A DNA stretch of 64,000 nt from Deltaproteobacteria bacterium (GTDB lineage Bacteria; Desulfobacterota; Syntrophia; Syntrophales; UBA2185). Shown here piece by piece: positions 1,331 through 22,351 of this stretch. How positions within the stretch are numbered: position 1 is the stretch's first letter; each line of letters starts with the position of its first letter. The translations under genes were made by a program, and so were the position numbers. The stretch spans positions 1,939 to 65,938 of the forward strand of contig JAPLJQ010000408.1 in the NCBI GenBank assembly GCA_026388495.1, written 5' to 3'. Below the pieces are notes generated by a model, which saw only the letters and a program-made list of their open reading frames with translations, was not told the DNA's origin and made no database searches.

Positions 1331-3657
<2,327 letters not shown>

Positions 3658-3724
3658 TCACCCTGTTGAAGTTCAGCGTTTTTCAAAACGAGACCTTTGA
3701 ATTTCTGCCAAAACTTGGTAAATT

Positions 3725-5376: not shown

Positions 5377-6354
5377 TCAGTATTTGTGACGCCCCAGGAG
5401 GCGTTCCAGCAACCTGGGACGATCAAACAGGCTCCAGAGGTACCCGTCGTCCACCACTTTCCCGCTTTGAATCCGTTGACGTTTTTTTAATGCCCGCTTC
5501 AAACCTTTCAGGGCGTCTTTCTTTGCCCTGAAAAAATCCTTTCCCCGACCGCTGATGACAAAATAGGTCAAGGCAGCGAGGTCATAAAGGAAGTGCGGAA
5601 TGATCGTTTTGAGCAGTAGCCGGGAAGGCATATTCTGAATGTAGACCCACTCCAGGTTCCGGTGGCCGTAATAAACCGAACGTGAGGAATCATGAACAAT
5701 ACTTGAACTGCCCTTGTGATAAACAAGCGCCTCCGGAACATAAAGGCACTTATAACCTTTCAATTGCGCTCGGAAACTCAGATCCACATCTTCGTACAGT
5801 AAAAAAAAATCTTCATCAAAGAAACCAATGTCGCGAAGCATTGCCATGCGGTAAAGCGCAGCCGCCGCGCAGGCGCCGAACACCCATTCGCGGATCTCAT
5901 AGCGGTCCGCTGATAATCCCCTGCCTCGCAGCAGGGCCGCTCCGGCTCTTGTGTATCCGTCTCCGGCGCGATCGATCATCTCCCGCCTGTTGTTGAGAAG
6001 CATCTTCGATGCCGCCAGCCCGGCCTGCGGGTGCTCTTCCATCGCCTCGACAAGAGATTTCAGCCATAAGGGGTCGGGAACCGCATCGTTATTCAGCAGT
6101 GCGACAAATTCGGTCTCAACCGTGTGAAGCGCAATATTGTTCGCCGCGGCAAATCCCCTGTTGTCCTGCAAGGCCACAATGCTGACTTCCGGGTAATTTT
6201 CGGAGACGAACGCCGTTGAACCATCTTGAGAACCGTTATCAATCAGTATGACCGAAAAAGCCCGGTAAACCTGCCGGCGCAGGCCCTCCAGACATTCCGG
6301 AAGAAATTCCCTGCCGTTCCAGTTGATGATGACAATGGATACCATAGGATCCAT
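5377..6354 (-). CDS. glycosyltransferase family 2
   Basis: 325 aa; VSIVIINWNG, LIDNGSQDGS, LNNDA, YEDVDLSFR motifs of GT-A/GT2 (rhamnosyltransferase-like). Confidence 0.85.
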   Translation of the reverse strand: MDPMVSIVIINWNGREFLPECLEGLRRQVYRAFSVILIDNGSQDGSTAFVSENYPEVSIVALQDNRGFAAANNIALHTVETEFVALLNNDAVPDPLWLKSLVEAMEEHPQAGLAASKMLLNNRREMIDRAGDGYTRAGAALLRGRGLSADRYEIREWVFGACAAAALYRMAMLRDIGFFDEDFFLLYEDVDLSFRAQLKGYKCLYVPEALVYHKGSSSIVHDSSRSVYYGHRNLEWVYIQNMPSRLLLKTIIPHFLYDLAALTYFVISGRGKDFFRAKKDALKGLKRALKKRQRIQSGKVVDDGYLWSLFDRPRLLERLLGRHKY

Positions 6355-6422
6355 GCTCTAACCCTTGCCGCTCGATTCATGCCAAAGATGCACCGCCGGA
6401 TCAGCGCCTGAAGCACAGAGAG

Positions 6423-7358
6423 TCATTCACGTTCCTTTGACTTTTGCAACCATTCCCAGGTTCGCGCAATACCCTCTTCCCAGGATACTTCAGGCTGCCA
6501 GCCGAGCTCCTTCCGTGCCAACTGAATATCCAGACAATTTACCGGGACATCCAATCTTCTCGCCGGCGTATACCGCACGATCGGCTCCACGCCGGTTACT
6601 ACACGGATGATCGATAAAATATCGTTCAGCGAACGGGCCCGGCCACCGGCAATATTATAGATTTTCGACGGAGGATCGGACTCGATCACCCGTATGAAGG
6701 CGTCGACGAGATCACCGATGTAAAAATAGTCTCTTGCCACCGAGCCATCACCCCAGATCGTGATCGGCTGCCGTAAAAGTGTTTCTCCCAAGAAAACGGC
6801 AACCGCCCCCTGGACACTGTCAATGCGTTGTCTTTCGCCATAAGGGTTTGCAAGACGCAGTACCGTATAATCGAGGTTGTGAAGATGATGGAAGAGTGCA
6901 AGATACTTTTCGATAGCCAGCTTGGTAATGCCATAGGAACAAACGGGATTCGTTTCATGGGTTTCCGGAATGGGCACTGAACGAGGAATGCCGTAAACCG
7001 TCCCACCGGAGGAGGAAAATATAATTTTCCTGACCCCTTTTGCCACTGCCTGCTTCAAAAGGTTCAAGGTCCCTATAACATTGCTTTCCACATCATAAGC
7101 CGGGTTTTCATTTGAAGGCCCTGGCAACGTTGTGCACACCAGATAGACAACCACGTCAACATCTTCCAGGGCGAGTGAAATATCATTCACATTGTTGAAA
7201 TCACCGCCCAAGATCTCCACGGAGTCAATACTCTGTTTCAGATTGACCGTGCTGATATTGGGAAGGTCAAAAATTCTTACCCTGTGGCCCCTCGCAACCA
7301 AGGCATCCACGATGTGTGAACCCATAAAGCCGGCTCCGCCCAGAACGAGGCAATGCAT
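6423..7358 (-). CDS. NAD-dependent epimerase/dehydratase (extended SDR, GalE-like)
   Basis: 311 aa; GGAGFMGSH Rossmann motif; catalytic SYGITK (YxxxK); GGGGAG RBS. Confidence 0.85.
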   Translation of the reverse strand: MHCLVLGGAGFMGSHIVDALVARGHRVRIFDLPNISTVNLKQSIDSVEILGGDFNNVNDISLALEDVDVVVYLVCTTLPGPSNENPAYDVESNVIGTLNLLKQAVAKGVRKIIFSSSGGTVYGIPRSVPIPETHETNPVCSYGITKLAIEKYLALFHHLHNLDYTVLRLANPYGERQRIDSVQGAVAVFLGETLLRQPITIWGDGSVARDYFYIGDLVDAFIRVIESDPPSKIYNIAGGRARSLNDILSIIRVVTGVEPIVRYTPARRLDVPVNCLDIQLARKELGWQPEVSWEEGIARTWEWLQKSKERE

Positions 7359-7415
7359 ATCAATTATCTCCCCATACAGAGTGTTATTACCATGGCAATA
7401 GTATATGTCAAAGTC

Positions 7416-7504
7416 GTCATTCCGGCGAAAGCCGGAATCCAGAATTAATTTGTCTGGATGCCGGATCTGGCCTGCCCCGTACCTGATACGGGGTCCGGCA
7501 TGAC
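7416..7504. repeat. MITE-like intergenic repeat, family A (copy 2, inverted relative to copies 1 and 3)
   Basis: GTCATTCCGGCGAAAGCCGGAATCCAG ... CCCCGTACCTGATACGGGG ... GGCATGAC; terminal GTCAT/ATGAC inverted repeats. Confidence 0.8.
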
Positions 7505-7547
7505 ATTTTACCTGTTTTGTCGCCGGAGTATTAAGACGGCCGAGACC

Positions 7548-8915
7548 TCATGCCACTGTCCGGCAGTGAACAACATCATCATAAATCCGTTCCAGTTCGT
7601 CAACATAAGAGGAGATCGATTTCGGCTGTCTGGCGTGATCGGACAAATGTTTGACCACTGATCGGTCATTGCAGAGCATCCGGATGATATCTGCAAGCCT
7701 TTTCACATCCCCTCTTTCAAACCGAAAGCCGTTTTCTCCGTTGGCAATCACCTCATTCATCCCCTCTGAATCCGTAGCCACGACAGGCACCCGCGCCGCC
7801 TGCGCAAAAGAGAGCACTAAGGGACTGTTTTCATACCATAACGATGGAATAATCAACACATCTAATCGATTAAAAATGTCTCCAATCGAATGATTAGGGA
7901 AGGTGCCGCAAAATGCTATACGATGGTCATTTCCGGCTACTGATCGCAAGGTCTTGGCATATTCGGGAAACTGCTCAAGTTCGCCGTATATTTTTACCTC
8001 CAGAGGCATTTCTGTTGGCAAGGAACGCACCGCTTCGAGCAACACATGGGCGCCCTTATGGGAGTATAGGGTCCCGATGAAACCGATCCGGAGATGCTTT
8101 GCTGTTCCTTTTGTCGAAACGCTCATGATATGGGTGCGGTCGATTCCAAAAGGAACATGCCGGATTTTCTTTTCTTCCAGGCCATAACGATGCAGCATTT
8201 CTCCCATGAATCGGGTGGCCACCAACACCAAGCCTATCCGGTTCATCCGCTTTTCCATGTACGCAGGTCTGGAGGCCAGGGCATGTACAAGGGGAACAAT
8301 GCCCTTCTCAGGCCGGAAGGCAGCGCATTTGACCCATCGTATCAAAACGGCCATCAGTCCGTTTGGCAACCGATCCAGGATGGATCGGATCCTTTGCCCT
8401 TGTGAAATGGCAGCAAGGTGGCGCACGCAATTTACCATTCCCTTGTCAGGGCCCAAACACCGGGAGTGATCGGGCAGGAGCAATTGATTGGTCGGGCAAA
8501 TCAGCCAGAAATCCGTCGCCGTAAAAACAGTCGGAATCTTTAATTCATGACAGACATCAATGGCTGCTGCAGAAAGCCGCTGCAGGTGGTAAAAATGGAC
8601 CAGATCCGGTTTCAGCTCCTGAATCCGTCTGCGAAAGAAATCTGCAAAGAACAGGTTGTTATATTCCGCTTCCATCGGATTCCGGGGTCGAATCGATGAG
8701 GTATTGGAATAAAAAAAACGATCGACGGATATCCCGTCATGTTCGTAGCGGTCAAAGGCATGAGATGCTGCGACAGCCCCCTTCACAGGATATCCCGTAA
8801 AGATACAGACCTCATGCCCGCGCCTGGCTATTTCTTTCGCCGTACTGTATGTGAGGATTTCAGTACCCGCAGCATAGTCGGGAAGAAACTGATGGGTTGT
8901 ATAGAGTATTTTCAT
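7548..8915 (-). CDS. glycosyltransferase family 4 (GT-B)
   Basis: 455 aa; N-terminal KILYTTHQFLPDYAAGTE and C-terminal YENSPLVLSFAQAARVPVVATDSEGMNEVI (E-x7-E region). Confidence 0.8.
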   Translation of the reverse strand: MKILYTTHQFLPDYAAGTEILTYSTAKEIARRGHEVCIFTGYPVKGAVAASHAFDRYEHDGISVDRFFYSNTSSIRPRNPMEAEYNNLFFADFFRRRIQELKPDLVHFYHLQRLSAAAIDVCHELKIPTVFTATDFWLICPTNQLLLPDHSRCLGPDKGMVNCVRHLAAISQGQRIRSILDRLPNGLMAVLIRWVKCAAFRPEKGIVPLVHALASRPAYMEKRMNRIGLVLVATRFMGEMLHRYGLEEKKIRHVPFGIDRTHIMSVSTKGTAKHLRIGFIGTLYSHKGAHVLLEAVRSLPTEMPLEVKIYGELEQFPEYAKTLRSVAGNDHRIAFCGTFPNHSIGDIFNRLDVLIIPSLWYENSPLVLSFAQAARVPVVATDSEGMNEVIANGENGFRFERGDVKRLADIIRMLCNDRSVVKHLSDHARQPKSISSYVDELERIYDDVVHCRTVA

Positions 8916-8957
8916 GGGTTTTGCAGCCCATCATTTTGTCCACCCAAGTTGTTGAGC

Positions 8958-11246
8958 TTATGCAACACCTTGATATTCCAGCCTTTTCAGGAGTTTTTTT
9001 CCAATGGCCTTCAGAAACCGGTTATGAATAACGATTCGACCAAGCCAGGTTCGGCTCAAAAGAATAGCAAACCTTGCAACCGCCTGCACCTCCGGAGGCG
9101 TGGTCAGCAACGCAGTATCGGCAGTTGACGAAGGAGGTTTGGTATTCCATAGCCAATCCGCTGTCTCCCCAAGACGTTTGCATTCAAGCGACAGGGTTGC
9201 CAATTCCCGCCCAAAGCCCTGGCTGATCGGATATCGCGGATGGTCAATCCTGAGCTGATGGGCTTCGTCCAGGAGTGCAAGAAAATTATCAATCATACCC
9301 TCCCATGATAATTTTAACGCGGCAAGCGCCTTGCCCTGTTTCGACATCTGTTGCAATTTTGCAGAATGGGAAAGCAAGCGGCGAATTGCATCCAAATATT
9401 CTCGAAGCTCGTTGTCCCCCTGCGGGATCAACACGCCCGCATCCCGGGTCACAATCTCGTCATGTCCGCCAACATCGGCCACGACAGGCACGACACCGGC
9501 AGCCATTGATTCCAGGAGTGCGATCGAAATGCCCTCATATTGGGAAGGCATCAGGAAAATATCCGAGGCGATCAGAATATCAAGCCATCTTTGATGCGGA
9601 ACCGAGGCCAGCATCTGGACATGGTCAGCCAAATGATACTGGCCCAGCAGGTCTTTCAGTTGCGCCTTCAGCTCACCATCGCCGATGATGAGCGCCCGGA
9701 ATATAAGACCCTGATCGCGTGCCGCCCTGAGGATATCCGCCAGCAGGAACGGGCGTTTTTGTTCACAAATCCGTCCGGCAAAGACAATCAACGGCGTGTC
9801 TTCCGGGATATTCAGCTCCGACCGCACCGAGCTTCGCACTTCATCGGGCTGACCGGATTGGGAAACCCTTACGCCTGTATACATCACCCTGATTCGCCCG
9901 CCGTCGGCGCCACGGTTCTTCATCCATCTGGCCAGATGCCTGTTGGTTACAATATTCAACTCAAGTGCATCCTGATAGCCCACACCGAACCTGGGATGCC
10001 CCCCGTTCAACCAGTGAGGTTCCTCGGCATGGCACATGTCAACAAACGCCACCCCCGGCGAGACAGCCCTCAGATAGGGCAGGAAGTAGTATCCGATGGT
10101 GCTGCCTGTAATGACGACCGTATCGATTTTCCGGGACTGGATCAGGTATGCCAGGAATCGCGGATAGTCCGACGCATGGAGGATATTCGGCAAGATGAAG
10201 ATATCGGGCGTAAAGCGACTGAACTGATGCTCCCAGTGGTGATCGGCCGGCAGGGTCGCGCAGATGGTTATATCATGCCCCTTAGCCGTCAATCCCTCGA
10301 TCAGGTCAAGATTGACGCGGTCGGCTCCGCCCGTTGTCATCCAGGGGAGGATGAACATGATCCGTCTCCCCGACGGATTCGCCGACAGAGAATTGGACAC
10401 AGCGGAATTTGTCTCGATCGTCTCGTATGGCGCCGGATGACGTCGCACAGGCTCCGGGAAGTGTTTGTCCAGGCCTTCATATTTCCGGTGCATCCTTCTT
10501 TCGAATTCCTCGTTGACATTTCCGGACCGCATGATCTTTTCAAAACGACCGTCGCCGCGTTTACGATACCATAGCAGAAATTCACGGATCGTGTAGCCCC
10601 AGTGCCCCGCTTTTGCCATGGCCAGCCAGAAATCCCAGTCCTCATGGCCAAACCGGATGGACTCGTCAAAACCGCCGCAGCCTTCATACGCGGAACGTCG
10701 TACCACGGCAAAAGAGGGGCCGCTGTTGGCCTGCAAGTGCGTTTTGCCCCTTTCAAATCCAGTCGTCCAAAGATATTCCTGATTGCCAAACACGACGCTG
10801 CAAGCATTGCAGAAAGCAAACTCCGGGTTGGAATCGAGGAACCAGACACATTTCTCAAGGTACGTCGGTTCCACCATGTCGTCGCTGTCCAGGAGGCAAA
10901 CGTAGCGGCCTGACGTGTTGCGAAAGGCATTGTTGCGCGCTGCGCCGGGCCCGGCATTTTCTTGTCGGATGACCTTGATGCGCTTGTCTTTTGCTGTTAC
11001 ACCGACAAGTCGCTTTACAGATTCCTCGTCCGTAGAACCATCGTCAACAATCACCCATTCCCAGTTCTGTAAGGATTGTGCCTGCAGCGATACAAACGTC
11101 TCAACAAAGAGTTCCTCCGTGTTGTAGTAAGGGGTAATAACCGACACGTCAATGTGCTCAAAAACGGAATCTCCCCTCTTGTAATTGCGCGGGAGTGCCC
11201 TGCGGCCAGGCAAATCGGAAAAGTCAGGTTCCAGGCAATTGATCAT
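8958..11246 (-). CDS. two-domain glycosyltransferase (N-terminal GT2 + C-terminal GT4)
   Basis: 762 aa; GT2 motifs VSVITPYYNTEE, VIVDDGSTD, LDSDDM; GT4 motifs ILPWMTTGGADR and PSQYEGISIALLESMAAGVVPVV. Confidence 0.85.
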   Translation of the reverse strand: MINCLEPDFSDLPGRRALPRNYKRGDSVFEHIDVSVITPYYNTEELFVETFVSLQAQSLQNWEWVIVDDGSTDEESVKRLVGVTAKDKRIKVIRQENAGPGAARNNAFRNTSGRYVCLLDSDDMVEPTYLEKCVWFLDSNPEFAFCNACSVVFGNQEYLWTTGFERGKTHLQANSGPSFAVVRRSAYEGCGGFDESIRFGHEDWDFWLAMAKAGHWGYTIREFLLWYRKRGDGRFEKIMRSGNVNEEFERRMHRKYEGLDKHFPEPVRRHPAPYETIETNSAVSNSLSANPSGRRIMFILPWMTTGGADRVNLDLIEGLTAKGHDITICATLPADHHWEHQFSRFTPDIFILPNILHASDYPRFLAYLIQSRKIDTVVITGSTIGYYFLPYLRAVSPGVAFVDMCHAEEPHWLNGGHPRFGVGYQDALELNIVTNRHLARWMKNRGADGGRIRVMYTGVRVSQSGQPDEVRSSVRSELNIPEDTPLIVFAGRICEQKRPFLLADILRAARDQGLIFRALIIGDGELKAQLKDLLGQYHLADHVQMLASVPHQRWLDILIASDIFLMPSQYEGISIALLESMAAGVVPVVADVGGHDEIVTRDAGVLIPQGDNELREYLDAIRRLLSHSAKLQQMSKQGKALAALKLSWEGMIDNFLALLDEAHQLRIDHPRYPISQGFGRELATLSLECKRLGETADWLWNTKPPSSTADTALLTTPPEVQAVARFAILLSRTWLGRIVIHNRFLKAIGKKLLKRLEYQGVA

Positions 11247-11439
11247 GATAACCTATCCTATGTTACTATCATTCGGTCGCCACAAACCAGACCCGGGCGC
11301 CTGCAAGATGACCTTGGATGGTCACCTTTGGATTTGATGGATTGCGGCTTTGCGCGCAACTGTAAAAACCATTCCTTATCGAATCCTTTAAGAAATACCT
11401 TTTCTCTGTGGGACATTTGAATTCTTCCTTTTGGTCTGA

Positions 11440-12627
11440 TTAGTTAGTTTCCGGATTTGTGCCCAGCACCACTTTCGGCCGAGACAAGATGCGCTTTTTC
11501 GCTAAAGACATGCAGGGCTTCTCGACAAGATGATGGAGCCCCGCAGAAAGCGCTAATGTAACGATGACAAACATGATGACCTGCACGGCAACCGGCAACG
11601 AAGAGAACCAGGGGGCATGATAACTAAAGTAGAAGATGACCGGCTGATGGACGAGATAAAGCGCGAAGCTGATCTCGCCCAGATAGACGACCGGCGCACA
11701 AGCGACTAAACGACTGATCCTTCCGCGCTCATGGAAAAAGACGACAATCAAGGCAACAAAGGCGCCGGCCGAGAAACTGGCCTTCATCCAGTTTGATAAA
11801 ACGATAGATCCTTGAGCCTCTGCGAAGCTTACCGCAATGGACGTCAAAACGACACATGCCGCAACCAACACAACACAAGCTACCTCCGAGAGGTTGTTTG
11901 CAATCGCCATTCGATAACGGGTGACTGCCTCGTATGCGCTGACGCCGATTGTGAACTCAAAAATGCGGGCGAGCGGGTTGCATATAGTAAGGACAGCCAC
12001 GTCGGCATCCGGCTTATAGAGCCATAACCCACAGAGCCATGCGAAAGTCATGAGTGTGCCGATAACAACGGGCCGCCAAGGCGAGACAATCGCTTGCCGA
12101 CTGAGAAACGGAAACATGGCATAAAAGAACATTTCCGCGGAAAGTGACCATGCGGGGCCATTAAGTGCCCCGAGTCCCTTGGTGTCAGGGCTCCATGCCT
12201 GAAACAGGAATGTGGCCGAAACGATTTGCGCAGGCGTGTAGGTTGCGGCAAAATATTTTACCACGTCCCAGCCCCCACTCAGGATGATAAGCAGGATAAC
12301 GGCTATATGGCAGGGCCATAATCGCCAGAACCGCAGCGCCATAAATTTGAAATCGGTCATGCCTCCCAGCCTCTCCCTATAGGCATGCTGGAGAATGAAA
12401 CCCGAAAGCACATAGAAGAAGCTCACACCCTGGTGAAGGGGAATCGGCCCGTATGCGTGGGGCGGCAACCATAGAAGTCCCGGCAAATGGTGCATCACGA
12501 TTGCTGTTGCCGCGAAAAAACGGAGGCCGGTAAGCGCCGCGATGCGGTCCGGGGAGGCGGGGGCTGCCGAGACTCTCCAAAATACGAGGCCTCCCATCAA
12601 TCTTTCTATCCCGTTTGATAACCGCAT
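11440..12627 (-). CDS. acyltransferase family 3 (membrane O-acyltransferase)
   Basis: 395 aa, about 10 predicted TM segments; N-terminal LTGLRFFAATAIVMHH typical of Acyl_transf_3. Confidence 0.8.
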   Translation of the reverse strand: MRLSNGIERLMGGLVFWRVSAAPASPDRIAALTGLRFFAATAIVMHHLPGLLWLPPHAYGPIPLHQGVSFFYVLSGFILQHAYRERLGGMTDFKFMALRFWRLWPCHIAVILLIILSGGWDVVKYFAATYTPAQIVSATFLFQAWSPDTKGLGALNGPAWSLSAEMFFYAMFPFLSRQAIVSPWRPVVIGTLMTFAWLCGLWLYKPDADVAVLTICNPLARIFEFTIGVSAYEAVTRYRMAIANNLSEVACVVLVAACVVLTSIAVSFAEAQGSIVLSNWMKASFSAGAFVALIVVFFHERGRISRLVACAPVVYLGEISFALYLVHQPVIFYFSYHAPWFSSLPVAVQVIMFVIVTLALSAGLHHLVEKPCMSLAKKRILSRPKVVLGTNPETN

Positions 12628-12673
12628 TACTCGTTAGCCCCGGCAATCATCAGGAGAAGCAGATTTTCTGTAA

Positions 12674-13936
12674 TCAAAACAATTTCCTTCCGGACAATCT
12701 ATTGAGCAATCGCACTCCTCTGTGAGATTGAATCTTTTCGAGCCTTTCAGCGAGTTGCCGGGCATTGCCGTCATTGAGAACGGCAGCGGCTTCCCATGCC
12801 GCTCGCTGGGACTCCAGCCAGGCATTGCCGGTCAGCAGGCCTTGCACTTGCGCTTGCAGCGCGGCGATGGACTGCTCGCGCTCGGCAACAACCTTCTGCC
12901 ATGCCTCGCATTGCGACGACAGCCAGGCTTTGCCGGTCAGCAGGTCTTGTACATGGGTCTGCAGATCTTGAACCTGGGCCTGCAGATCTTGAACCTGGGC
13001 CTGCAATGCAAAGAAGGTGGTTATGCTAACCCCGGATTGCAGCAATTGTAACAATTGAATCGTTTGAGGATGATTAAAATCAATAAGATCGTAAAACGCC
13101 GGTTGATCTTTCATCAGCGATAAAAAGAGCATCGTTTCCAAAGAAAGATCATGGTTATTTTTAAGCAATTCTAATATTTCAGAAAAAGGAACATTCGCAT
13201 TCAACTCTTTCAAATTGTCAACAATCAGCCAATTAACTTCAAATTGAACTTTTAAACCACCCTCTCTCTCATGAACCGTATTTTCTGGATGCATCCGGTA
13301 CTTGAGCAGGTCTTCCTTTATAAGATGAATCTGATATCTTCTTGAGAATCTAAGCAGCATATCCCAATCATGCGCGTATCTCAAACCTTTAAAGCCGCCG
13401 CATTCCTGAAAGCACTTTCGCCTGACAAAAAGGTTCGATGTGGTGATCATTATATTCTTCGCAAATGCATTGGGATAAAATTTATCTTCATTAAAAAAAA
13501 GAAGGGCGCTTCTGTACCAGTCCAGCCAGGCCTTCACTTTCGGTGTAATGCTTTCCTTTACCGGCGTTCCGCTTTGGTCAATACCTTCAACCATGGACAT
13601 GACAACCGAATAGCGTGCATTGCTTTCCAGATAATCTAAACACGTCTCCAAGCGTTTCGGCCCATAGACATCATCAGAATTAAGGATGGAAATATATTCC
13701 CCCTGAGCCAGAGAAATCCCCCTGTTTATGGCCGAATGTGCGCCACTGTTCTCTTGGCTGACATATTGAACCCTTTGATCGTGAACTGATAATATTCTCT
13801 GCTCGGTGGAATCGGTGGACCCATCATTGATAATAATTATTTCGAAATCCTGATAGCTCTGGTTTAAGACGCTGTTGATTGCTTCCGTGATATATTTTTC
13901 ATGATTATATGCGGGTATAATTACACTAATTTTCAT
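12674..13936 (-). CDS. glycosyltransferase family 2 with C-terminal coiled-coil extension
   Basis: KISVIIPAYNHEKY, IIINDGSTD, LNSDD; C-terminal LQAQVQDLQAQVQDLQTHVQDLLTGKAW...LQAQVQGLLTGNAW heptad repeats; ATG at 13936 has GGAAAG RBS (alternative ATG at 13954). Confidence 0.85.
   Translation of the reverse strand: MKISVIIPAYNHEKYITEAINSVLNQSYQDFEIIIINDGSTDSTEQRILSVHDQRVQYVSQENSGAHSAINRGISLAQGEYISILNSDDVYGPKRLETCLDYLESNARYSVVMSMVEGIDQSGTPVKESITPKVKAWLDWYRSALLFFNEDKFYPNAFAKNIMITTSNLFVRRKCFQECGGFKGLRYAHDWDMLLRFSRRYQIHLIKEDLLKYRMHPENTVHEREGGLKVQFEVNWLIVDNLKELNANVPFSEILELLKNNHDLSLETMLFLSLMKDQPAFYDLIDFNHPQTIQLLQLLQSGVSITTFFALQAQVQDLQAQVQDLQTHVQDLLTGKAWLSSQCEAWQKVVAEREQSIAALQAQVQGLLTGNAWLESQRAAWEAAAVLNDGNARQLAERLEKIQSHRGVRLLNRLSGRKLF
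12938..13006. repeat. 21-bp tandem repeat (about 3.3 units) inside the GT2 coiled-coil region
   Basis: CTGCAGATCTTGAACCTGGGC exact at 12959-12979 and 12980-13000, degenerate unit before and partial unit after; each unit encodes one heptad AQVQDLQ; also a roughly 105-bp-period repeat (12814-12859 vs 12920-12964). Confidence 0.9.
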
Positions 13937-13999
13937 ATACTTTCCATTCTGCAATACTCTGAGAGTATTGCGTGGGAAACGTTATGATGTTTATTGTCG

Positions 14000-14532: not shown

Positions 14533-16401
14533 CTAATCGAGCGCGAAGGTTCGCTTCCATTTATCCTTATTATTCCATTCAGGCTGCTCTTCCTTGATAA
14601 AGAGAATATTGCCAATGACAAGCACATCAATTTCCGTTGCCATGAAACAGGAGAAGGAATCTTCGGGCGTGCAGACGATCGGTTCACCCCGCACATTAAA
14701 TGAAGTATTCACGATGACACCGTATCCTGTTTTCTCTTTGAATCTCTTTATAAGCCTGTGGTATCGGGGATTGGTATCTTTATGAACAGTCTGAATACGG
14801 GCAGAAAAGTCAAGGTGGGTGATTGATTGAACATCACTGCGCGGTGTATACAGTCGGTCGAAGAGCGGGAGAGCATAATAATCGACAGGCAAAGATTTTC
14901 GACGGTTTTCTACCACATCAGCAATAAGAAGCATGTAGGGGGAGTCAGTCTTGAGATCGAAGAATGATTGGGTATCTTCTGCAATCACGGAAGGAGCGAA
15001 AGGACGGAATCCTTCGCGATATTTTATTTTCAGGTTGAGCTTTTGCTGCATTTCTTTATTACGAGCATCCCCCAGTATCGAGCGGTTGCCAAGCGCACGA
15101 GGCCCCCACTCCATTCGTCCCTGGTGCCATCCGATAACTTTACCGTCATTCAGATGATCCGTGACGATATCTATCATTTTTTCAAAATCATCGATACGAT
15201 GGAATATAGCCTTGTATTTTCGGGCCATGAGTTCCGTATCGAGATCACTAAATTCTGGACCTATATAGGCGCCCTGCATTGTATCGTGCTGATTATCGGC
15301 AGCGGCACGTTCGGCGCCATAATAGTGATGGTATGAGGCAAGCGCCGCTCCGAGCGCCCCTCCGGCATCGCCGGCCGCCGGCTGTATCCAGATGTTCTCG
15401 AAAATCCCCCTTTTCAGCAGGTTCCCGTTGGAAACACTGTTGAGTGCGGAACCGCCCGCAAGGCAAAGATACTTCGCACCGGTCATCTTTTTTGCGGTAA
15501 CGGCCATTTTAAAAACGATCTCATCATGCAGGAGCTGTATCGTATACGCAAGATCACAGTGGTGTTGCTCAATATTGCTTTCAAAACGTCTGGTTTCAAA
15601 CCCGAAAAGTTCCTTCCATTTCTTTTCGTTGATCATTCTGAGACCCGTTGCATACTGAAAATAATCCTGATTCATCCAAATCGAGCCATCGTCTTTGATA
15701 TCAAGCAAAGAGGAAAGGATTGTTTCACGATATTCTTTGATTTTCGGCGAATTCGGGTTCCCATAAGGCGCCATGCCCATTAACTTATATTCACCGGAAT
15801 TAACCTTAAAGCCGAGAAAATAGGTAAATGCCGAATAAAGCAGCCCCAGCGAGTGGGGAAATCTCATTTCTTTAAGGGGCCTGATGACATTGCCCCGGCC
15901 ATGCATAATGGTCGCAGTCGACCATTCGCCAACACCATCAACGGTGAGGATTGCCGCTTCATCAAAGGGTGATGGGAAAAATGCACTGGCCGCGTGACTA
16001 ATATGATGTTCGGTGAAAAGCAGCTTCAGCTTTGTAACATCAAGCGATGGCTCGATCACTTGCAGCTCGTCCCTGATGAGCTTTTTTAGGAATAATTTCT
16101 CCTTTATCCACACCGGAACGAAAGAGAGGAATTGTTTAAGACCCTTGGGTGCATTCACGTAATATGTCTCAAGCAAACGCTCGAACTTGAGCAGCGGCTT
16201 ATCATAGAAAACCACGGCATCGAGTTCTGCAATCCTGAAACCGCTCTGCATCAGGCAAAACTTCACCGCTTCGACAGGGAACCTGCTGTCCTGTTTGATT
16301 CGGGTAAAACGCTCTTCCTGAGCTGCGGCAACGATGCGGCCATCTTCAATCAACGCAGCGGCAGAATCATGGTAGAAAGCTGAAATGCCAAGTATTTTCA
16401 T
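14533..16401 (-). CDS. carbamoyltransferase (NodU/CmcH/SxtI family)
   Basis: 622 aa; N-terminal KILGISAFYHDSAAALIEDGRIVAAAQEERFTRIK hallmark; size typical of the family. Confidence 0.9.
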   Translation of the reverse strand: MKILGISAFYHDSAAALIEDGRIVAAAQEERFTRIKQDSRFPVEAVKFCLMQSGFRIAELDAVVFYDKPLLKFERLLETYYVNAPKGLKQFLSFVPVWIKEKLFLKKLIRDELQVIEPSLDVTKLKLLFTEHHISHAASAFFPSPFDEAAILTVDGVGEWSTATIMHGRGNVIRPLKEMRFPHSLGLLYSAFTYFLGFKVNSGEYKLMGMAPYGNPNSPKIKEYRETILSSLLDIKDDGSIWMNQDYFQYATGLRMINEKKWKELFGFETRRFESNIEQHHCDLAYTIQLLHDEIVFKMAVTAKKMTGAKYLCLAGGSALNSVSNGNLLKRGIFENIWIQPAAGDAGGALGAALASYHHYYGAERAAADNQHDTMQGAYIGPEFSDLDTELMARKYKAIFHRIDDFEKMIDIVTDHLNDGKVIGWHQGRMEWGPRALGNRSILGDARNKEMQQKLNLKIKYREGFRPFAPSVIAEDTQSFFDLKTDSPYMLLIADVVENRRKSLPVDYYALPLFDRLYTPRSDVQSITHLDFSARIQTVHKDTNPRYHRLIKRFKEKTGYGVIVNTSFNVRGEPIVCTPEDSFSCFMATEIDVLVIGNILFIKEEQPEWNNKDKWKRTFALD

Positions 16402-16540: not shown

Positions 16541-17575
16541 CTACCGGAGTGCCTGTTGCCCGAGCCATGCGCCCAGCTTTTCCGCCCACCACGCGTGAAT
16601 CCGGGTTCCCGGATGACCCTTTCCGCCGACCAGGAGCTTCTCCGGGCGTTTTTCCTCTCCGCGGTAAACCACTTCCAACTCCTCGATTCCTGAGGTTCGC
16701 ATCCCGTCGCTCATGAGCCGATACTCTTCCGGCCCGGGCGGTCCCCAATCTGAAAGGGTTGCGACCAGAAGACGTGCGTTCTTTTCTGCAAGGAACTCCT
16801 GCATCTGGCGAAGCAGAAGAACGGTGACCTGCATCTGATCCTTTTCGCGGTCCGCCAGCCGGTATTGCAGTTCCGTCCGATGGAGAAGTGAGACCAGCGC
16901 AGAGGATTCTTCAAACGGCCAATTGGAGACGACAAACGGAGGAAATGCCTCAAGCCGTCCGTCGCGCAATGCCACATGAGGAGGTGAAAATCGCTGACCG
17001 CCAAACGAGCGAAATGCGTCGAGCATGTAATACGTAAGGACATTGCGTCCGGCATGGAAGGGCACAAATCCATAGATGACCAAAGCCGGCCGGATGCGAC
17101 GCTGGTCGACAACCTCGCGGAGCAACTGTAAGGACTGGTATGTGCCATATCCCGGTGTGCCGAAGTTCAGGAACCGCACATGGGGAAATTTTTGCTGCAG
17201 TAACCATCCGAACGTTTCGTCATCGCGCACTCCATAGCCCTCGGCGAACGAGCAGCCGATAATGATGACTATCGGGCCGTTGGCGGTGGCCGGAGTCCCG
17301 GTTGCGCGCGAACCGCCGGGAAGAATGGTCATCGGTTCATGCGTTCCTTCGTGCGCAGGGTGGACTCCGGGGTTGTTCCGCCATCCCAGGGCGGGATCCC
17401 GCAAGGCCCATCCCGTGGACTGCTCCGACTGTTGGACGCTAAATACCGGCACGTCGGCCAGTCGCGCCATAACCTCCCCGATCCCGAGGCACAGCGCAAG
17501 CGTGAAGATGACTCCCGCAGTCCATAGTTTTACTATTCTCGACAACCGCTCGTGGACCTCCCTCCATGTTTTCAA
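16541..17575 (-). CDS. membrane-anchored hypothetical protein (possible SGNH/GDSL-like hydrolase or acyl-esterase fold)
   Basis: 344 aa; N-terminal TM anchor LWTAGVIFTLALCLGIGEV; block IVIIIGCSFAEGYGV loosely like SGNH block I; the track start is a TTG codon, so the start is uncertain. Confidence 0.45.
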   Translation of the reverse strand: MKTWREVHERLSRIVKLWTAGVIFTLALCLGIGEVMARLADVPVFSVQQSEQSTGWALRDPALGWRNNPGVHPAHEGTHEPMTILPGGSRATGTPATANGPIVIIIGCSFAEGYGVRDDETFGWLLQQKFPHVRFLNFGTPGYGTYQSLQLLREVVDQRRIRPALVIYGFVPFHAGRNVLTYYMLDAFRSFGGQRFSPPHVALRDGRLEAFPPFVVSNWPFEESSALVSLLHRTELQYRLADREKDQMQVTVLLLRQMQEFLAEKNARLLVATLSDWGPPGPEEYRLMSDGMRTSGIEELEVVYRGEEKRPEKLLVGGKGHPGTRIHAWWAEKLGAWLGQQALR

Positions 17576-17600: not shown

Positions 17601-18593
17601 CTACTCGAGTAAGGCTTTCCATTTTCTATAACGCGTCAACCATCGCCATCCTTGTGAGGCATGAATTTCATCCAACTGACGACTTTTCTCTGCAATTTGT
17701 CCCTGGAATGCCTGAATTTGCTGCAATTGCATATCTCTTTCTTGTTTCAGTCCTGTTAATTGAAGCTCCTTTTCTTTCAGTGCCGTTTGATGCTCCCTTA
17801 ACCACTCATCGGCCTGCTGCAGCCTTTTGTCACGGTCCGACAACGTGTTCTCCAATTGACATACTTGTTCAGAAAGTTTCTCCTTTTGATGGTCCAGTTC
17901 AATGTTTATTCCCAGATGATAAAAAAAATCGGAGACACAGGTTTCATTGTCTCTTCCCTGTTCCAAAAATGCCCGCACCTCTTCCTCGATTTGCTCGCCA
18001 ACGGCAAGAACACCCAAACCATTGCCAAACTTGAACTCAAAACTTGGATAGTTAATTGAAATCTCTTCCCATAGCCGCCAAACACCAAACTCCCGTTCCC
18101 GCACATGGGAATCATGAAACAGCACGACCCCTCTTTCACTCATCTTGGGTAACCACGATTCAAAATCATGCTTGACGGAATCATAGGTGTGGTGGCCATC
18201 AATGTGCAGGAGATCAATGGAGCCCTCAGGAAAATTATCCAGGGCATCATCGAAAAGGCATTTCATCAGGCTTGAAAAGCCGCCATATAAAGGGTCATGA
18301 TAAGCGCGCAGCTCTTCCAAGACCTCTTCGCCGTAAAATCCGGCCTGTTCATCGCCCTGCCAGCTATCCACGGCATAACAGAGGGTATTCAAGGCAATCT
18401 CACCCACAGCCTGGCAGAATGCGCAATAGGAATCCCCTTTGTGGGTTCCCAACTCAACAAATGTTTTCGGCTTGCACATTGCCGTAATCACGAAGGCAAA
18501 GGGAATATGCAGATGCCACGAGGCGACATCCGTGAGTCTCCGCGGCCTACGAAAAGCGATGCCGTAATCAAGCAAATTGAAAGGCATTTTCAT
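17601..18593 (-). CDS. class I SAM-dependent methyltransferase (Methyltransf_24/TylF-like) with C-terminal coiled coil
   Basis: 330 aa; FVELGTHKGDS, LLHIDGHHTYDSV, VVLFHD; last ~100 aa heptad-rich (EKLSEQVCQLENTLSDRDKRLQQADEWLREHQTALKEKELQLTGLKQERDMQLQQIQAFQGQIAEKSRQL). Confidence 0.8.
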   Translation of the reverse strand: MKMPFNLLDYGIAFRRPRRLTDVASWHLHIPFAFVITAMCKPKTFVELGTHKGDSYCAFCQAVGEIALNTLCYAVDSWQGDEQAGFYGEEVLEELRAYHDPLYGGFSSLMKCLFDDALDNFPEGSIDLLHIDGHHTYDSVKHDFESWLPKMSERGVVLFHDSHVREREFGVWRLWEEISINYPSFEFKFGNGLGVLAVGEQIEEEVRAFLEQGRDNETCVSDFFYHLGINIELDHQKEKLSEQVCQLENTLSDRDKRLQQADEWLREHQTALKEKELQLTGLKQERDMQLQQIQAFQGQIAEKSRQLDEIHASQGWRWLTRYRKWKALLE

Positions 18594-19183
18594 ATAAACT
18601 TACGCAGCAGGTAATGTCTGAACCCCGCTTTCCACAAAGATACTGTTGATGAAGCGGTTTTCCGGCACACCAAAACGGTATCCTGCCACCTGTCGCTTTC
18701 ATCGGGATAACCGGTCGTTCCATTTTGTGAATAAACCTCTAAAACTTCCAGAGAAGCGAAACGGGCAAGCGCCGTGAATCCGTCAGGATAAAAACGCCAA
18801 CAGTCAACCGGATAACGATGCTCGGGGCCGCCTGAGGGAGCAATGAGACAGCATAATCCCCCCGGTTTTAAGACCCTCGCAATTTCGAGCATGGTCAGCC
18901 AAAAGAATTCGATATGTTCGAACGCTTGCCCCGAGACCACGACATCGGCCGAGTCTGATTTGATTTCCCGCCAGTGATAGGGATCTTGAAGAACAATGTC
19001 CACATTCTTGCCGGCTGCCATATCGATCCCGCGGTATGTCCAGTAGGAATCCTCAAAACACCCCCTGTAAGAACCGTTCACATCCAGGCTTCCCAGATCG
19101 AGTATAAATAATGGCTCGTTGTTCTTGCCCCCTAGATACTTCATTCTGAACGCCAGCATTTTATCCAGGGAACTTTGATGCAC
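18590..19183 (-). CDS. class I SAM-dependent methyltransferase (Methyltransf_11-like)
   Basis: ILDLGSLDVNG and VVSGQAFEHIEFFWLTMLEIARVLKPGGL; likely GTG start at 19183 with AGGAGG 9 nt upstream (alternative ATG at 19159); the long track ORF to 19333 overlaps wzt. Confidence 0.7.
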   Translation of the reverse strand: MHQSSLDKMLAFRMKYLGGKNNEPLFILDLGSLDVNGSYRGCFEDSYWTYRGIDMAAGKNVDIVLQDPYHWREIKSDSADVVVSGQAFEHIEFFWLTMLEIARVLKPGGLCCLIAPSGGPEHRYPVDCWRFYPDGFTALARFASLEVLEVYSQNGTTGYPDESDRWQDTVLVCRKTASSTVSLWKAGFRHYLLRKFI

Positions 19184-19184
19184 T

Positions 19185-20465
19185 TTAATTGTCCTCCTGA
19201 AAAAATCCGACCTTTGTATTTGGGACAGAAAATATCCCGGCGGGCATCCGAACGGGAACACTTTTGAAAATAACCGCATCATGCAGATAGTGGCATTGCA
19301 TATGATCTGACTGAGTGCCGTCGGCGACGGCAACAGTCAGGGTATATTCCCCCTCGGCGAGATTGGGCCATGCATCCATCTCAAAGGTGATCACATATCT
19401 GCGGCCGCTCAATAAAGATTGGAGTTCTTTTTTGATCAATTGCGTGTTGTCGCCGAGTATCTCCCGGCCGAGACGATCCCTGACGATAAAGCCGACGATG
19501 GGGTTTGCTATGTCCTGATGGGCATGCAGCGCCATGCCGATCTCGCACGCCTGCCCGGAATAGGCGACGCCGTTGCCGCCCCCCCGGGAAACAAGACGCA
19601 CCGCCTCGATGGTCACGCGGCGGTCTCCAAACTGCCTGATATGGTCCCCGACCGGTGTAAATCCACCCGTATTGAAATCACGCCGGGATGCCCCCTCGCA
19701 CTTCAGTACCGGCGCCGCAAAACTGCCGTTCTCTTCATACATAAACTGCAGGTATTTCTCCACAACAAGCTTCGGCAGCCCGTCCATGACGATCTTTCCC
19801 GATTCGATCCAGATCGCCCGGGAACACAGCTCCGTCACGGCAGCCGTATCATGGGAGACAAAAATCACCGTGCCGGCCTGACAAAACGCCCGGATCCGGG
19901 CCATGCATTTTTGCTGGAAACGAGCGTCACCCACGGCCAGCGCCTCATCCACCACGAGGATATCCGGCGACACGTGGATCGCGACAGCGAAGGCCAGCCG
20001 GACATACATTCCGTTGGAATACATCTTTACCGGCTGTTCCATGAAGCCGCCGATACCGGCAAAGGCGGCAATCTCATCGTATTGCGATTCGATCTCCGAC
20101 CTGGAAATCCCCATGATGGCCGCGCTCATATAGACATTTTCGCGCCCCGTGAATTCCGGATTGAATCCCGCGCCCAGCTCTAATAAGGCGGCGATCCGGC
20201 CGCTCACCGCCAGTTCGCCCTCGGTCGGATTCAGTGTGCCGCAGATGATTTGCAGCAGCGTTGATTTCCCGGACCCGTTGGATCCAATGATCCCGACCGT
20301 TTCTCCTTTTTTGATTTCGAACGAGCAATCCCTGAGGGCCCAAAATTCCCGATAGAACCGTCTTCGCGCACGCCAGAGAGATTGTTTCAGCCGGTCCAAC
20401 GGCTGATCATAAATCTGATAGCACTTGCCTAAATTATGGGTGCGAACTGCAAAATCAAGAGACAT
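19185..20465 (-). CDS. wzt: polysaccharide/O-antigen ABC exporter ATP-binding protein with C-terminal Wzt-type glycan-binding domain
   Basis: 426 aa; Walker A GSNGSGKST, signature YSNGMYVRLAFA, Walker B ILVVDEALAVGD; ~170-aa C-terminal beta-rich extension as in Wzt/TagH. Confidence 0.9.
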   Translation of the reverse strand: MSLDFAVRTHNLGKCYQIYDQPLDRLKQSLWRARRRFYREFWALRDCSFEIKKGETVGIIGSNGSGKSTLLQIICGTLNPTEGELAVSGRIAALLELGAGFNPEFTGRENVYMSAAIMGISRSEIESQYDEIAAFAGIGGFMEQPVKMYSNGMYVRLAFAVAIHVSPDILVVDEALAVGDARFQQKCMARIRAFCQAGTVIFVSHDTAAVTELCSRAIWIESGKIVMDGLPKLVVEKYLQFMYEENGSFAAPVLKCEGASRRDFNTGGFTPVGDHIRQFGDRRVTIEAVRLVSRGGGNGVAYSGQACEIGMALHAHQDIANPIVGFIVRDRLGREILGDNTQLIKKELQSLLSGRRYVITFEMDAWPNLAEGEYTLTVAVADGTQSDHMQCHYLHDAVIFKSVPVRMPAGIFSVPNTKVGFFQEDN

Positions 20466-20492
20466 ATATTTTCCAGGAATAATACATCTTTG

Positions 20493-21353
20493 CTAGAGGA
20501 CGTCTGCAAAGGCCTTTTTGCTTTTCATGAACCACACGAACCCAAAAATCAACACTACCCCGGACAAGCCCATGCTGAAAAAAAACCAGGGCCAGTCCGG
20601 GGAAAGGCCCCACAGCACCGCCCTGCGGGCATCCTCCACAAACAGGGCAAACGGATTGATCCGGAAAAAAAAACGAAACTGTACGGGTACGGCGCTTATG
20701 GGGTAAAAGATCGGGGTCAGAAAGAAAAGAATTGTGGTCAAGACCCCGATAACGGTTCCTATGTCTCTTACAAATACCCCCAGAGAGGCCAGAAAATAGC
20801 CACAGCCCAGCGTGAACAACATCATCGGCAACCATACGAGCGGCAGCATGAGCACGGTCCAGTGGATAAAATGGTTGATGATAAAGATTCCCGCTAACAG
20901 CACCCCCAGACTGAAAACAGCATTGATCAAGGCGCTCAGGAGTCGCACAAGCGGAAGAATCTCCAGAGGGAAAACCACCTTCTTGACATAATTGGCGTTG
21001 CCCAGCACCAACGAGGGGGCCGAATTGACCACCTCTGAGAAAACGCTGAAGGTGATCAATCCCATAAACAGGGCCAGGGCGAAAGCGGCTTTGCCTTCTC
21101 CGGCCTCGACACCCCACCGGGCCTTGAAGATGACGGAAAATACAAAGGTGTAAACGCACAGCATGACCAGCGGCTGAATGAACGACCATCCCAGCCCGAT
21201 AAACGATCCCTTGTAGCGTCCCACAACCTCGCGCCACGTCAACTGCCGGATCAGGTCCCGGTATTGCCAGAGGTGCGCTGCGATCCGGACCGGATTGAAA
21301 AACCCGCCGACGCGCTCACCCCCGGGGGTTATGATTTTGATGTTGTCAGCCAT
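20493..21353 (-). CDS. wzm: ABC-2 type polysaccharide exporter permease
   Basis: 286 aa, 6 predicted TM; directly upstream of wzt; typical Wzm size and topology. Confidence 0.85.
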   Translation of the reverse strand: MADNIKIITPGGERVGGFFNPVRIAAHLWQYRDLIRQLTWREVVGRYKGSFIGLGWSFIQPLVMLCVYTFVFSVIFKARWGVEAGEGKAAFALALFMGLITFSVFSEVVNSAPSLVLGNANYVKKVVFPLEILPLVRLLSALINAVFSLGVLLAGIFIINHFIHWTVLMLPLVWLPMMLFTLGCGYFLASLGVFVRDIGTVIGVLTTILFFLTPIFYPISAVPVQFRFFFRINPFALFVEDARRAVLWGLSPDWPWFFFSMGLSGVVLIFGFVWFMKSKKAFADVL

Positions 21354-22296: not shown

Positions 22297-22351
22297 GAAT
22301 TGGGGACAGCCACTAATTCTTCAGGGAAGAATTAGTGGCTGTCCCCAATTC
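22297..22351. repeat. 55-bp perfect palindrome (26-bp stem, 3-nt loop)
   Basis: GAATTGGGGACAGCCACTAATTCTTC-AGG-GAAGAATTAGTGGCTGTCCCCAATTC; lies between the DUF1566 gene stop (22370) and the TA promoter; possible bidirectional terminator or insulator. Confidence 0.85.

Follow-up and report, generated by a model that had tools for sequence, protein, structure and literature searches.

The locus described here raises the question of how a bacterium brings the growth of an exported glycan to an end, and how its exporter recognizes a chain as finished. It lies in a 64,000-nucleotide (nt) stretch of DNA from a Deltaproteobacteria bacterium of the Syntrophales lineage UBA2185 (assembly GCA_026388495.1, contig JAPLJQ010000408.1, positions 1,939 to 65,938), which we call the window and number from its first letter. 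Here wzm and wzt, the genes of an ATP-binding cassette (ABC) glycan exporter, are followed by two methyltransferase genes, the second of which encodes a protein of 330 residues with a heptad-rich tail. A first-pass annotation had read this pair as a chain terminator and ruler like WbdD, divided over two genes and lacking a kinase. Its gene order on the minus strand (wzm, wzt, a small methyltransferase and a Methyltransf_24 enzyme) agrees with both the Pfam matches and the gene junctions. Its picture of the terminator has to be redrawn: we propose that export through Wzm/Wzt depends on a cap, and that the terminator is the 330-residue protein, a stand-alone Methyltransf_24 O-methyltransferase carried on a parallel coiled-coil stalk. 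We put the probability of this reading at roughly 0.55.

The exporter side of this proposal begins with Wzt. About 180 residues of the protein extend beyond its ATPase domain, close to the roughly 170 first estimated, and both a profile search (Wzt_C, 108.5 bits) and comparison with solved structures identify them as a carbohydrate-binding domain. No other Wzt_C match was found in the whole genome, which comprises 3.25 Mb in 608 contigs. The best solved match to the full protein is full-length Wzt of Aquifex aeolicus (8dku, E 2.6e-86, in two stretches), and the C-terminal 176 residues match binding-domain structures of the same protein (8dky, E 1.3e-14; 6o14, E 1.8e-14). The A. aeolicus domain binds a 3-O-methyl-mannose/rhamnose cap (PMC9445017). 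In a HMMER pairwise alignment, three of its four methyl-pocket positions are kept or conservatively replaced here (Leu300 by Ile, with Thr346 and Ala348 unchanged), and Asp354 and His355 of its trap loop are kept. Judged by these sequence matches, this is the locus of a cap-dependent Wzm/Wzt exporter with a genuine cap-binding domain.

If the exporter reads a cap, which enzyme could make it? The 330-residue protein matches the Methyltransf_24 profile PF13578 with 91.5 bits against a cut-off of 26.3, and in an alignment of 61 sequences it keeps all 33 invariant columns, including E47, G49, D127, D132, H135, H160 and D161. With its catalytic core intact, the enzyme looks active. In a Foldseek search, the best match of the catalytic domain was the sugar O-methyltransferase MeT1 of Mycobacterium hassiacum (6g80, E 4.1e-11), followed by cation-dependent O-methyltransferases. 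Descent from WbdD, as first proposed, finds no footing here. A search of PDB sequences with the 330-residue enzyme at E<=1 gave 11 matches, all at chance level (E 0.08 or weaker) and WbdD not among them, and WbdD was likewise absent from the listed Foldseek matches of either methyltransferase. All class I methyltransferases share one fold, so a distant kinship with WbdD is still conceivable. A Pfam scan of both methyltransferases and the neighbouring genes found no kinase family, and an NCBIfam scan assigned neither methyltransferase to a family. The lack of a kinase was therefore rightly called, and it is nothing new: WbdD proteins that only methylate are known from E. coli O8 and K. pneumoniae O5 (PMC3482155, PMC11231755).

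The tail of the enzyme has the features expected of a stalk. Residues 232 to 312 keep one heptad register, and in 9 of 11 heptads Leu, Ile or Val occupies one core position. The hydrophobic contrast at positions a and d is 0.56, a value that none of 5000 shuffles reached; the shuffled sequences had a mean of 0.16. AlphaFold2, given the 61-sequence alignment, returned a model with a mean predicted local distance difference test (pLDDT) score of 94.9, in which the methyltransferase core extends to about residue 215 and is followed by a helix from 217 to 311, a two-residue break and a second helix from 314 to 329. Modelled as a homodimer, the protein scored 0.53, 0.52 and 0.49 (median 0.52), against 0.05, 0.00 and 0.00 for three controls; in calibration, 20 of 30 proteins whose solved structure is a pair of one chain came up to the mark set for this score, as did 1 of 23 whose structure is a single chain. 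These counts apply only roughly to this protein, for which our own alignment was used. At least 98% of contacts were common to the three runs, with pLDDT of at least 87 for the partner chain. The contacts with least predicted error join like residues (247-247, 244-244 and 303-303) and span 212 to 319; since like pairs with like, the modelled coil runs parallel and in register. Solved structures abound in coiled coils, and part of the dimer score may reflect likeness to them. Together, the shuffle test, the modelled helix and the dimer score (0.52 versus 0.05) uphold the initial view that the last 100 residues or so form a coiled coil, and the dimer model supports, without proving it, a coiled coil that is parallel and in register. 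With some 95 residues, the stalk would be roughly 14 nm long, assuming the usual helix rise. The protein ends 18 residues after the coil, without glycosyltransferase (GT) modules.

The base of the stalk carries a motif of its own. Of 239 relatives with a full catalytic core, 153 have in their tail a pattern of the form S-x-x-W-[RKQ], which is S-x-G-W-R in the 330-residue enzyme; it is present among short-tailed proteins (67 of 108) and long-tailed ones (83 of 123) alike. It lies 97 residues from the core here, and at a median distance of 100 residues across the relatives (quartiles 83 and 130, range 27 to 393). The helix after the motif has a net charge of +5, three Trp and one Tyr, and may form a Trp/Arg interfacial segment at the C-terminus. 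The motif could serve at a membrane interface, as a hinge or as a docking site. A literature search with the motif in its spelled variants found no paper on it, most subscription journals lying outside the reach of that search.

The relatives of the enzyme place it more firmly in the setting of chain assembly. At E<=0.001 there are 5916 relatives of 181 to 578 residues and 4728 of 579 to 2000 residues. One genome per species was scanned, which yielded at least 579 relatives, and our locus statistics refer to the best 80 of these loci, which come from many phyla; their six-frame open reading frames (ORFs) were searched with the proteins of this locus, and many of the loci end at contig ends. 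The Wzt ATPase is encoded in 49 of the 80 loci and Wzm in 44. Among the 47 strong Wzt matches, 40 lie upstream of the family member on the same strand, 30 of these within 800 nt, and 36 have at least 120 residues beyond the ATPase domain. In five loci, the gap of 630 to 679 nt between wzt and the Methyltransf_24 gene is filled by a small-methyltransferase gene, as it is here.

What follows the catalytic core varies greatly in length. The tail ranges from 28 to 1572 residues (median 541) and is at most 214 residues long in 25 of 81 relatives and at least 280 in the other 56; in 73 of the 81, at least 28 tail residues pass our heptad score. Among 14 proteins chosen by hand for length and spread, 11 have GT2, GT4 or WsaF-type domains after the coil according to Pfam. 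The closest fused relatives are 65-74% identical to the enzyme over all 330 residues, and continue from the same 'GWRWLTRFRK' helix as its own, through a Pro/Lys-rich linker of about 30 residues, into a GT4 domain; the S-x-x-W-[RKQ] motif of fused proteins stands between the coil and the linker to GT4. By this comparison of sequences, the 330-residue enzyme is the unfused form of a terminator-plus-stalk module that its relatives carry fused to GT modules. Gene context and fused relatives together make termination by methylation, which the first-pass annotation had suggested, the best reading of the locus.

Closer to home, the enzyme is patchily distributed. Among 40 related genomes, 5 had any match at E<=0.001, of which one was strong (43% identity, in a fused frame of 1166 residues) and four were weak and partial; the genome of a genus-mate had no match to the 330-residue enzyme at this threshold. 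The locus is therefore strain-variable, as is expected of an exchangeable surface-glycan locus.

Between wzt and the stalked enzyme lies the gene for the small methyltransferase of 197 residues. Its match to PF08241 is 34.8 bits against a cut-off of 21.2 and covers only positions 44 to 94 of the 95 in the profile, and its AlphaFold2 model (pLDDT 94.0) is a generic class I methyltransferase fold. Foldseek matched this model best to uncharacterised methyltransferases, with the sugar O-methyltransferases RebM and AtmM further down, and a search of PDB sequences at E<=1 gave two matches, neither of them a WbdD chain. Homologues are plentiful, with 5874 at E<=0.001 and 405 at E<=1e-30 among the 1.84 billion representatives searched. 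Of the related loci, 11 of 80 contain the small methyltransferase; its gene immediately precedes the Methyltransf_24 gene in six of them, immediately follows it in two and adjoins it in divergent orientation in one. Two side observations concern this protein. It ends in a basic helix predicted by AlphaFold2 (residues 180-196; positions 18590-18643, minus strand), whose Trp/Arg/Leu pattern recurs in homologues from other phyla and which may be a second docking or membrane element. In a Woesearchaeota bin (locus L067), the homologue occupies two adjacent ORFs (3322-3678 and 3106-3318, minus strand) and a Methyltransf_24 gene of the opposite strand lies next to them; the split may reflect either a sequencing error or a broken gene.

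Homologues of the small methyltransferase are themselves often parts of larger proteins. Of its best 150 representatives, 99 are at least 260 residues long, the domain beginning within the first 25 residues in 94 of these and further in in five; 64 have a heptad stretch in the tail. In six of the 150, the small methyltransferase is followed by a Methyltransf_24 domain in one polypeptide, in the same order as here, with a coil after it. Pfam analysis of 20 hand-picked representatives found a second methyltransferase of the PF13578/CmcI type in 10 and of the Methyltransf_23/11 type in 7, and these second domains often precede a coil or glycosyltransferases. A metagenomic protein of 1745 residues (P0139) has two tandem Methyltransf_24 cores, at 11-228 and 362-567, ahead of its glycosyltransferase domains, and is another form of double-methyltransferase head. 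Tandem methyltransferase heads are thus a recurrent design, encoded here as two coupled genes, in which the small methyltransferase is an accessory second methyltransferase.

These data also bear on whether the two genes could be a literal WbdD homologue in two pieces, with the small methyltransferase as its catalytic half and the Methyltransf_24 protein as its ruler half. Tight coupling of the two genes and the existence of fused forms in other organisms would fit such a division, which we nevertheless regard as highly improbable. Neither protein matched WbdD, by sequence or among the listed structural matches, and the stalked protein is no mere ruler, because it keeps every invariant core residue of its own family. 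Moreover, in the DNA fetched for each locus, 69 of 80 showed no small methyltransferase, and there the Methyltransf_24 domain and its coil are complete in one protein. The notion of a protein split over two genes accordingly fails with respect to WbdD and survives with respect to the fused relatives.

How would the stalked terminator act? We propose that it adds a methyl group to the terminal sugar at the non-reducing end of the undecaprenyl-linked polymer, and that this methylation would both stop elongation and provide the mark required by the Wzt binding domain for export. The conserved Trp/Arg-rich helix would lie at the membrane-proximal end and the stalk would hold the catalytic heads at a distance from that end, and only chains of a minimum length would then be capped. 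The small methyltransferase, coupled in translation, would act on the same chain end, for example by adding a second methyl group. The polymerase would be encoded separately downstream, by the gene for the GT2+GT4 fusion and those of other glycosyltransferases, much as WbdA is separate from WbdD. More tentatively, we suggest that two methyltransferase domains in tandem yield a doubly modified chain end (for example, di-O-methyl) for Wzt, that the S-x-G-W-R helix docks or anchors the module to a polymerase, whether fused or separate, and that the enzyme represents the unfused state of a widespread and uncharacterised terminator family.

Several points weigh against the stalked enzyme as terminator and ruler, some on the side of the cap and some on that of the stalk. 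We infer both the chemistry of the cap and the role of the ruler, and the methyl cap in particular is conjectural. In the A. aeolicus domain, Trp362 forms a lid over the methyl group, and its loss abolishes binding (PMC9445017). Here the residue aligned with Trp362 is a Leu, directly preceded by a Tyr, and Ala stands in place of His350, so the cap specificity of that domain cannot be transferred to this one. Among the 47 neighbouring Wzt proteins, 11 lack an extension of the size of a binding domain, and the enzyme family is for this reason not strictly tied to cap-reading exporters. A further caution comes from P. aeruginosa, whose common polysaccharide antigen cluster contains PA5457 and PA5459, by description resembling the present pair in being two methyltransferase genes in a Wzm/Wzt cluster. 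They are partly redundant and jointly required for production of the polymer; they are described without the membrane- and glycosyltransferase-interacting domains of WbdD, their overexpression does not strongly shorten the chains, and they are neither clear terminators nor WbdD-like length regulators (PMC3560663).

Such points lend some weight to an alternative that we consider unlikely, if serious, in which the methyltransferases decorate internal sugars of the repeat unit and the mark read by Wzt comes from a carbamoyltransferase, an acyltransferase or a glycosyltransferase that adds a unique terminal sugar. A NodU-like carbamoyltransferase and an acyltransferase_3 protein are indeed encoded in the same strand block, and terminal sugars such as 3-deoxy-D-manno-octulosonic acid (Kdo) are known caps (PMC11231755). 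Yet none of the 80 related loci has a homologue of the carbamoyltransferase, which we have rejected as a conserved partner, and neither it nor the acyltransferase accompanies the methyltransferase in other genomes; what is conserved is a Methyltransf_24 gene after wzt. The position of the catalytic domain also favours a terminator, as it sits at the N-terminal tip of the coil, opposite the polymerase modules of the fused relatives, where the terminator is placed in every characterised case compared.

As for the stalk, the heptad score is a crude, home-made measure, and the coil was modelled as a dimer. We tried the C-terminal element as an amphipathic membrane helix and rejected it; its hydrophobic moment of 0.32 was reached by 2267 of 5000 shuffles, so this measure does not support a membrane helix like that of WbdD. 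A stalk by itself does not prove a ruler, and methylation by WsaE did not depend in vitro on how long the chain was (PMC2943079). A second alternative, which seems to us less likely again, is a terminator whose coil only dimerises the enzyme and holds it in the assembly complex, with chain length set by the ratio of terminator to polymerase. The clustering of core-to-motif distances around their median could then reflect a structural need and not tuning. On the other hand, these distances vary from 27 to 393 residues across the relatives, and in the parallel, in-register model the two heads lie together with the two Trp/Arg helices at the opposite end, an arrangement that has the geometry of a ruler. 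In WbdD and WbbB-type proteins, it is the length of the coil that sets the length of the chain (PMC11231755).

Taking the stalked enzyme as the terminator, we can compare the locus with systems already worked out. Like WbdD of E. coli O8 and K. pneumoniae O5, the enzyme stands alone, with an N-terminal methyltransferase, a C-terminal coiled coil and no kinase, and it also lacks the kinase domain of the O9a/O3-type WbdD. WbdD recruits a separately encoded polymerase (PMC11231755, PMC3482155); here too the polymerase appears to be encoded apart, and, as in the WbdD/WbdA/Wzt system, the exporter ATPase has a cap-binding domain. The differences are equally clear. The catalytic domain is of the Methyltransf_24 type, closest to MeT1 and the cation-dependent O-methyltransferases; WbdD is a trimer (PMC3482155), whereas the stalk was modelled here as a dimer, the one state modelled; a short Trp/Arg helix with a conserved motif of its own makes up the C-terminal element; and a second methyltransferase is coupled upstream. 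From its sequences, the locus would thus work like the WbdD/WbdA/Wzt system of E. coli O8 with a stalked enzyme that is not a member of the WbdD family.

The fused relatives find their parallels elsewhere. In ORF6 of K. pneumoniae O7, terminator, coil and polymerase are joined in one protein that includes a kinase and makes a methyl-phosphate cap, and in WbbB of K. pneumoniae O12, a single protein with terminator, coiled coil and polymerase glycosyltransferases adds Kdo (PMC11231755). The family shares with them an N-terminal terminator module and a coiled-coil spacer, and most relatives have the fused layout with GT2, GT4 or WsaF-type domains; the 330-residue protein differs in stopping after the coil, and the likeness to ORF6 is one of layout. 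In Geobacillus stearothermophilus NRS 2004/3a, the gene for WsaE comes directly after wzm-wzt, and the protein caps a rhamnan with a 2-O-methyl group through its N-terminal O-methyltransferase domain (PMC2943079). It differs from the 330-residue enzyme in being fused to two rhamnosyltransferase domains. A Bacilli locus of our set (L049) has this layout, with wzm-wzt followed by a Methyltransf_24 + GT2 + GT2 protein of 1168 residues; WsaE was not named among the best 120 of the 4658 matches to that protein, and the likeness is one of layout.

The positions of the features discussed are collected in Table 1. The glycan genes form a single minus-strand block that runs from 21353 down to 5377, and its junctions are tight. 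The wzt stop codon TAA is followed, after one base, by the GTG start of the small-methyltransferase gene at 19183, which has an AGGAGG 9 nt upstream, and the two methyltransferase genes are joined by an ATGA overlap; both junctions are as first annotated. The relatives recovered share the GTG start point, those with a recovered N-terminus beginning 'MH.S', and for this reason a longer TTG frame reaching 19333 was ruled out as the gene. The deposited protein for the 330-residue gene has 292 residues and covers 88% of the frame. Homologues cover all 330 residues and align from residue 1, which makes the ATG at 18593 the likelier start and places the annotated one probably too far downstream.

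Table 1. Features of the exporter and glycan block, in window coordinates
Feature	Positions	Strand	Evidence
wzm, ABC-2 permease of glycan exporter, 286 residues	20493-21353	minus	PF01061 ABC2_membrane, 92.5 bits
wzt, 426 residues, ATPase (residues 1-245) and C-terminal carbohydrate-binding domain	19185-20465	minus	ABC_tran (PF00005), residues 44-176, 83.9 bits; Wzt_C, 108.5 bits
Wzt_C domain (PF14524), Wzt residues 278-404	19254-19634	minus	108.5 bits (cut-off 30.4)
Small class I S-adenosylmethionine (SAM) methyltransferase, 197 residues, GTG start	18590-19183	minus	PF08241 Methyltransf_11, 34.8 bits
Methyltransf_24 enzyme, 330 residues	17601-18593	minus	PF13578, 91.5 bits
Catalytic domain of Methyltransf_24 enzyme, residues 1-215	17949-18593	minus	PF13578 match
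Predicted coiled-coil stalk, residues 217-311 of the 330-residue enzyme, one uninterrupted helix	17661-17945	minus	Heptad test, AlphaFold2 helix, dimer model
Terminal Trp/Arg/Lys-rich helix, residues 314-329, preceded by S-x-G-W-R motif	17607-17654	minus	Separate AlphaFold2 helix
344-residue protein, N-terminal hydrophobic segment (from translation)	16541-17575	minus	No Pfam match
NodU-like carbamoyltransferase	14533-16401	minus	Carbam_trans_N, 314.5 bits; Carbam_trans_C, 235.7 bits
GT2	12674-13954	minus	Pfam; candidate polymerase/tailoring gene of block 5377-13954
Acyltransferase_3	11440-12627	minus	Pfam; candidate polymerase/tailoring gene
GT2+GT4 fusion	8958-11246	minus	Pfam; candidate polymerase/tailoring gene
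GT4	7548-8915	minus	Pfam; candidate polymerase/tailoring gene
Epimerase	6423-7358	minus	Pfam; candidate polymerase/tailoring gene
GT2	5377-6354	minus	Pfam; candidate polymerase/tailoring gene

Several neighbouring features complete the picture of the block. The 344-residue protein next to the stalked enzyme has a weak SGNH/GDSL signature (NCBIfam LA_2486 GDSL family, 23.7 bits, far under the cut-off); in the closest locus, L001, a homologue (640 bits) likewise comes right after the two methyltransferases, and homologues occur in 2 of the 80 loci overall. The carbamoyltransferase scores 136 bits for NodU in NCBIfam, under the cut-off, and its sequence makes a carbamoylated glycan possible in this organism. 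Upstream, a perfect palindrome with a 20-bp stem (22301-22347) lies just downstream of a gene with an Lcl_C domain, and about 880 nt upstream of wzm there is a promoter-like site on the minus strand (TTGACA, 17 nt, TAAACT; 22258-22230). Taken jointly, the two elements suggest, from the sequence, that the wzm block is a transcription unit of its own. Further upstream is a second and much larger glycan region (22370-64000, minus strand), with three B12-binding radical SAM enzymes, one radical SAM/SPASM enzyme, at least seven more methyltransferases and cytidylyltransferases.

As far as this one genome goes, we gain an ordinary piece of annotation. The cap-and-export strategy itself is already known; what sets this locus apart is that its methyltransferase comes from another family, that a second one is coupled to it and that the base of the stalk has its own motif, all in enzyme families that are uncharacterised. 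To our knowledge, the way in which a cap, a stalk and a cap-reading exporter together control chain length is understood for only a few enterobacterial serotypes. Some ten thousand database members from many phyla appear to follow this logic while relying on another methyltransferase. Their fused and unfused forms, with one methyltransferase or two and with the stalk-base motif, make up a natural set in which the generality of the ruler model could be tested by comparison.

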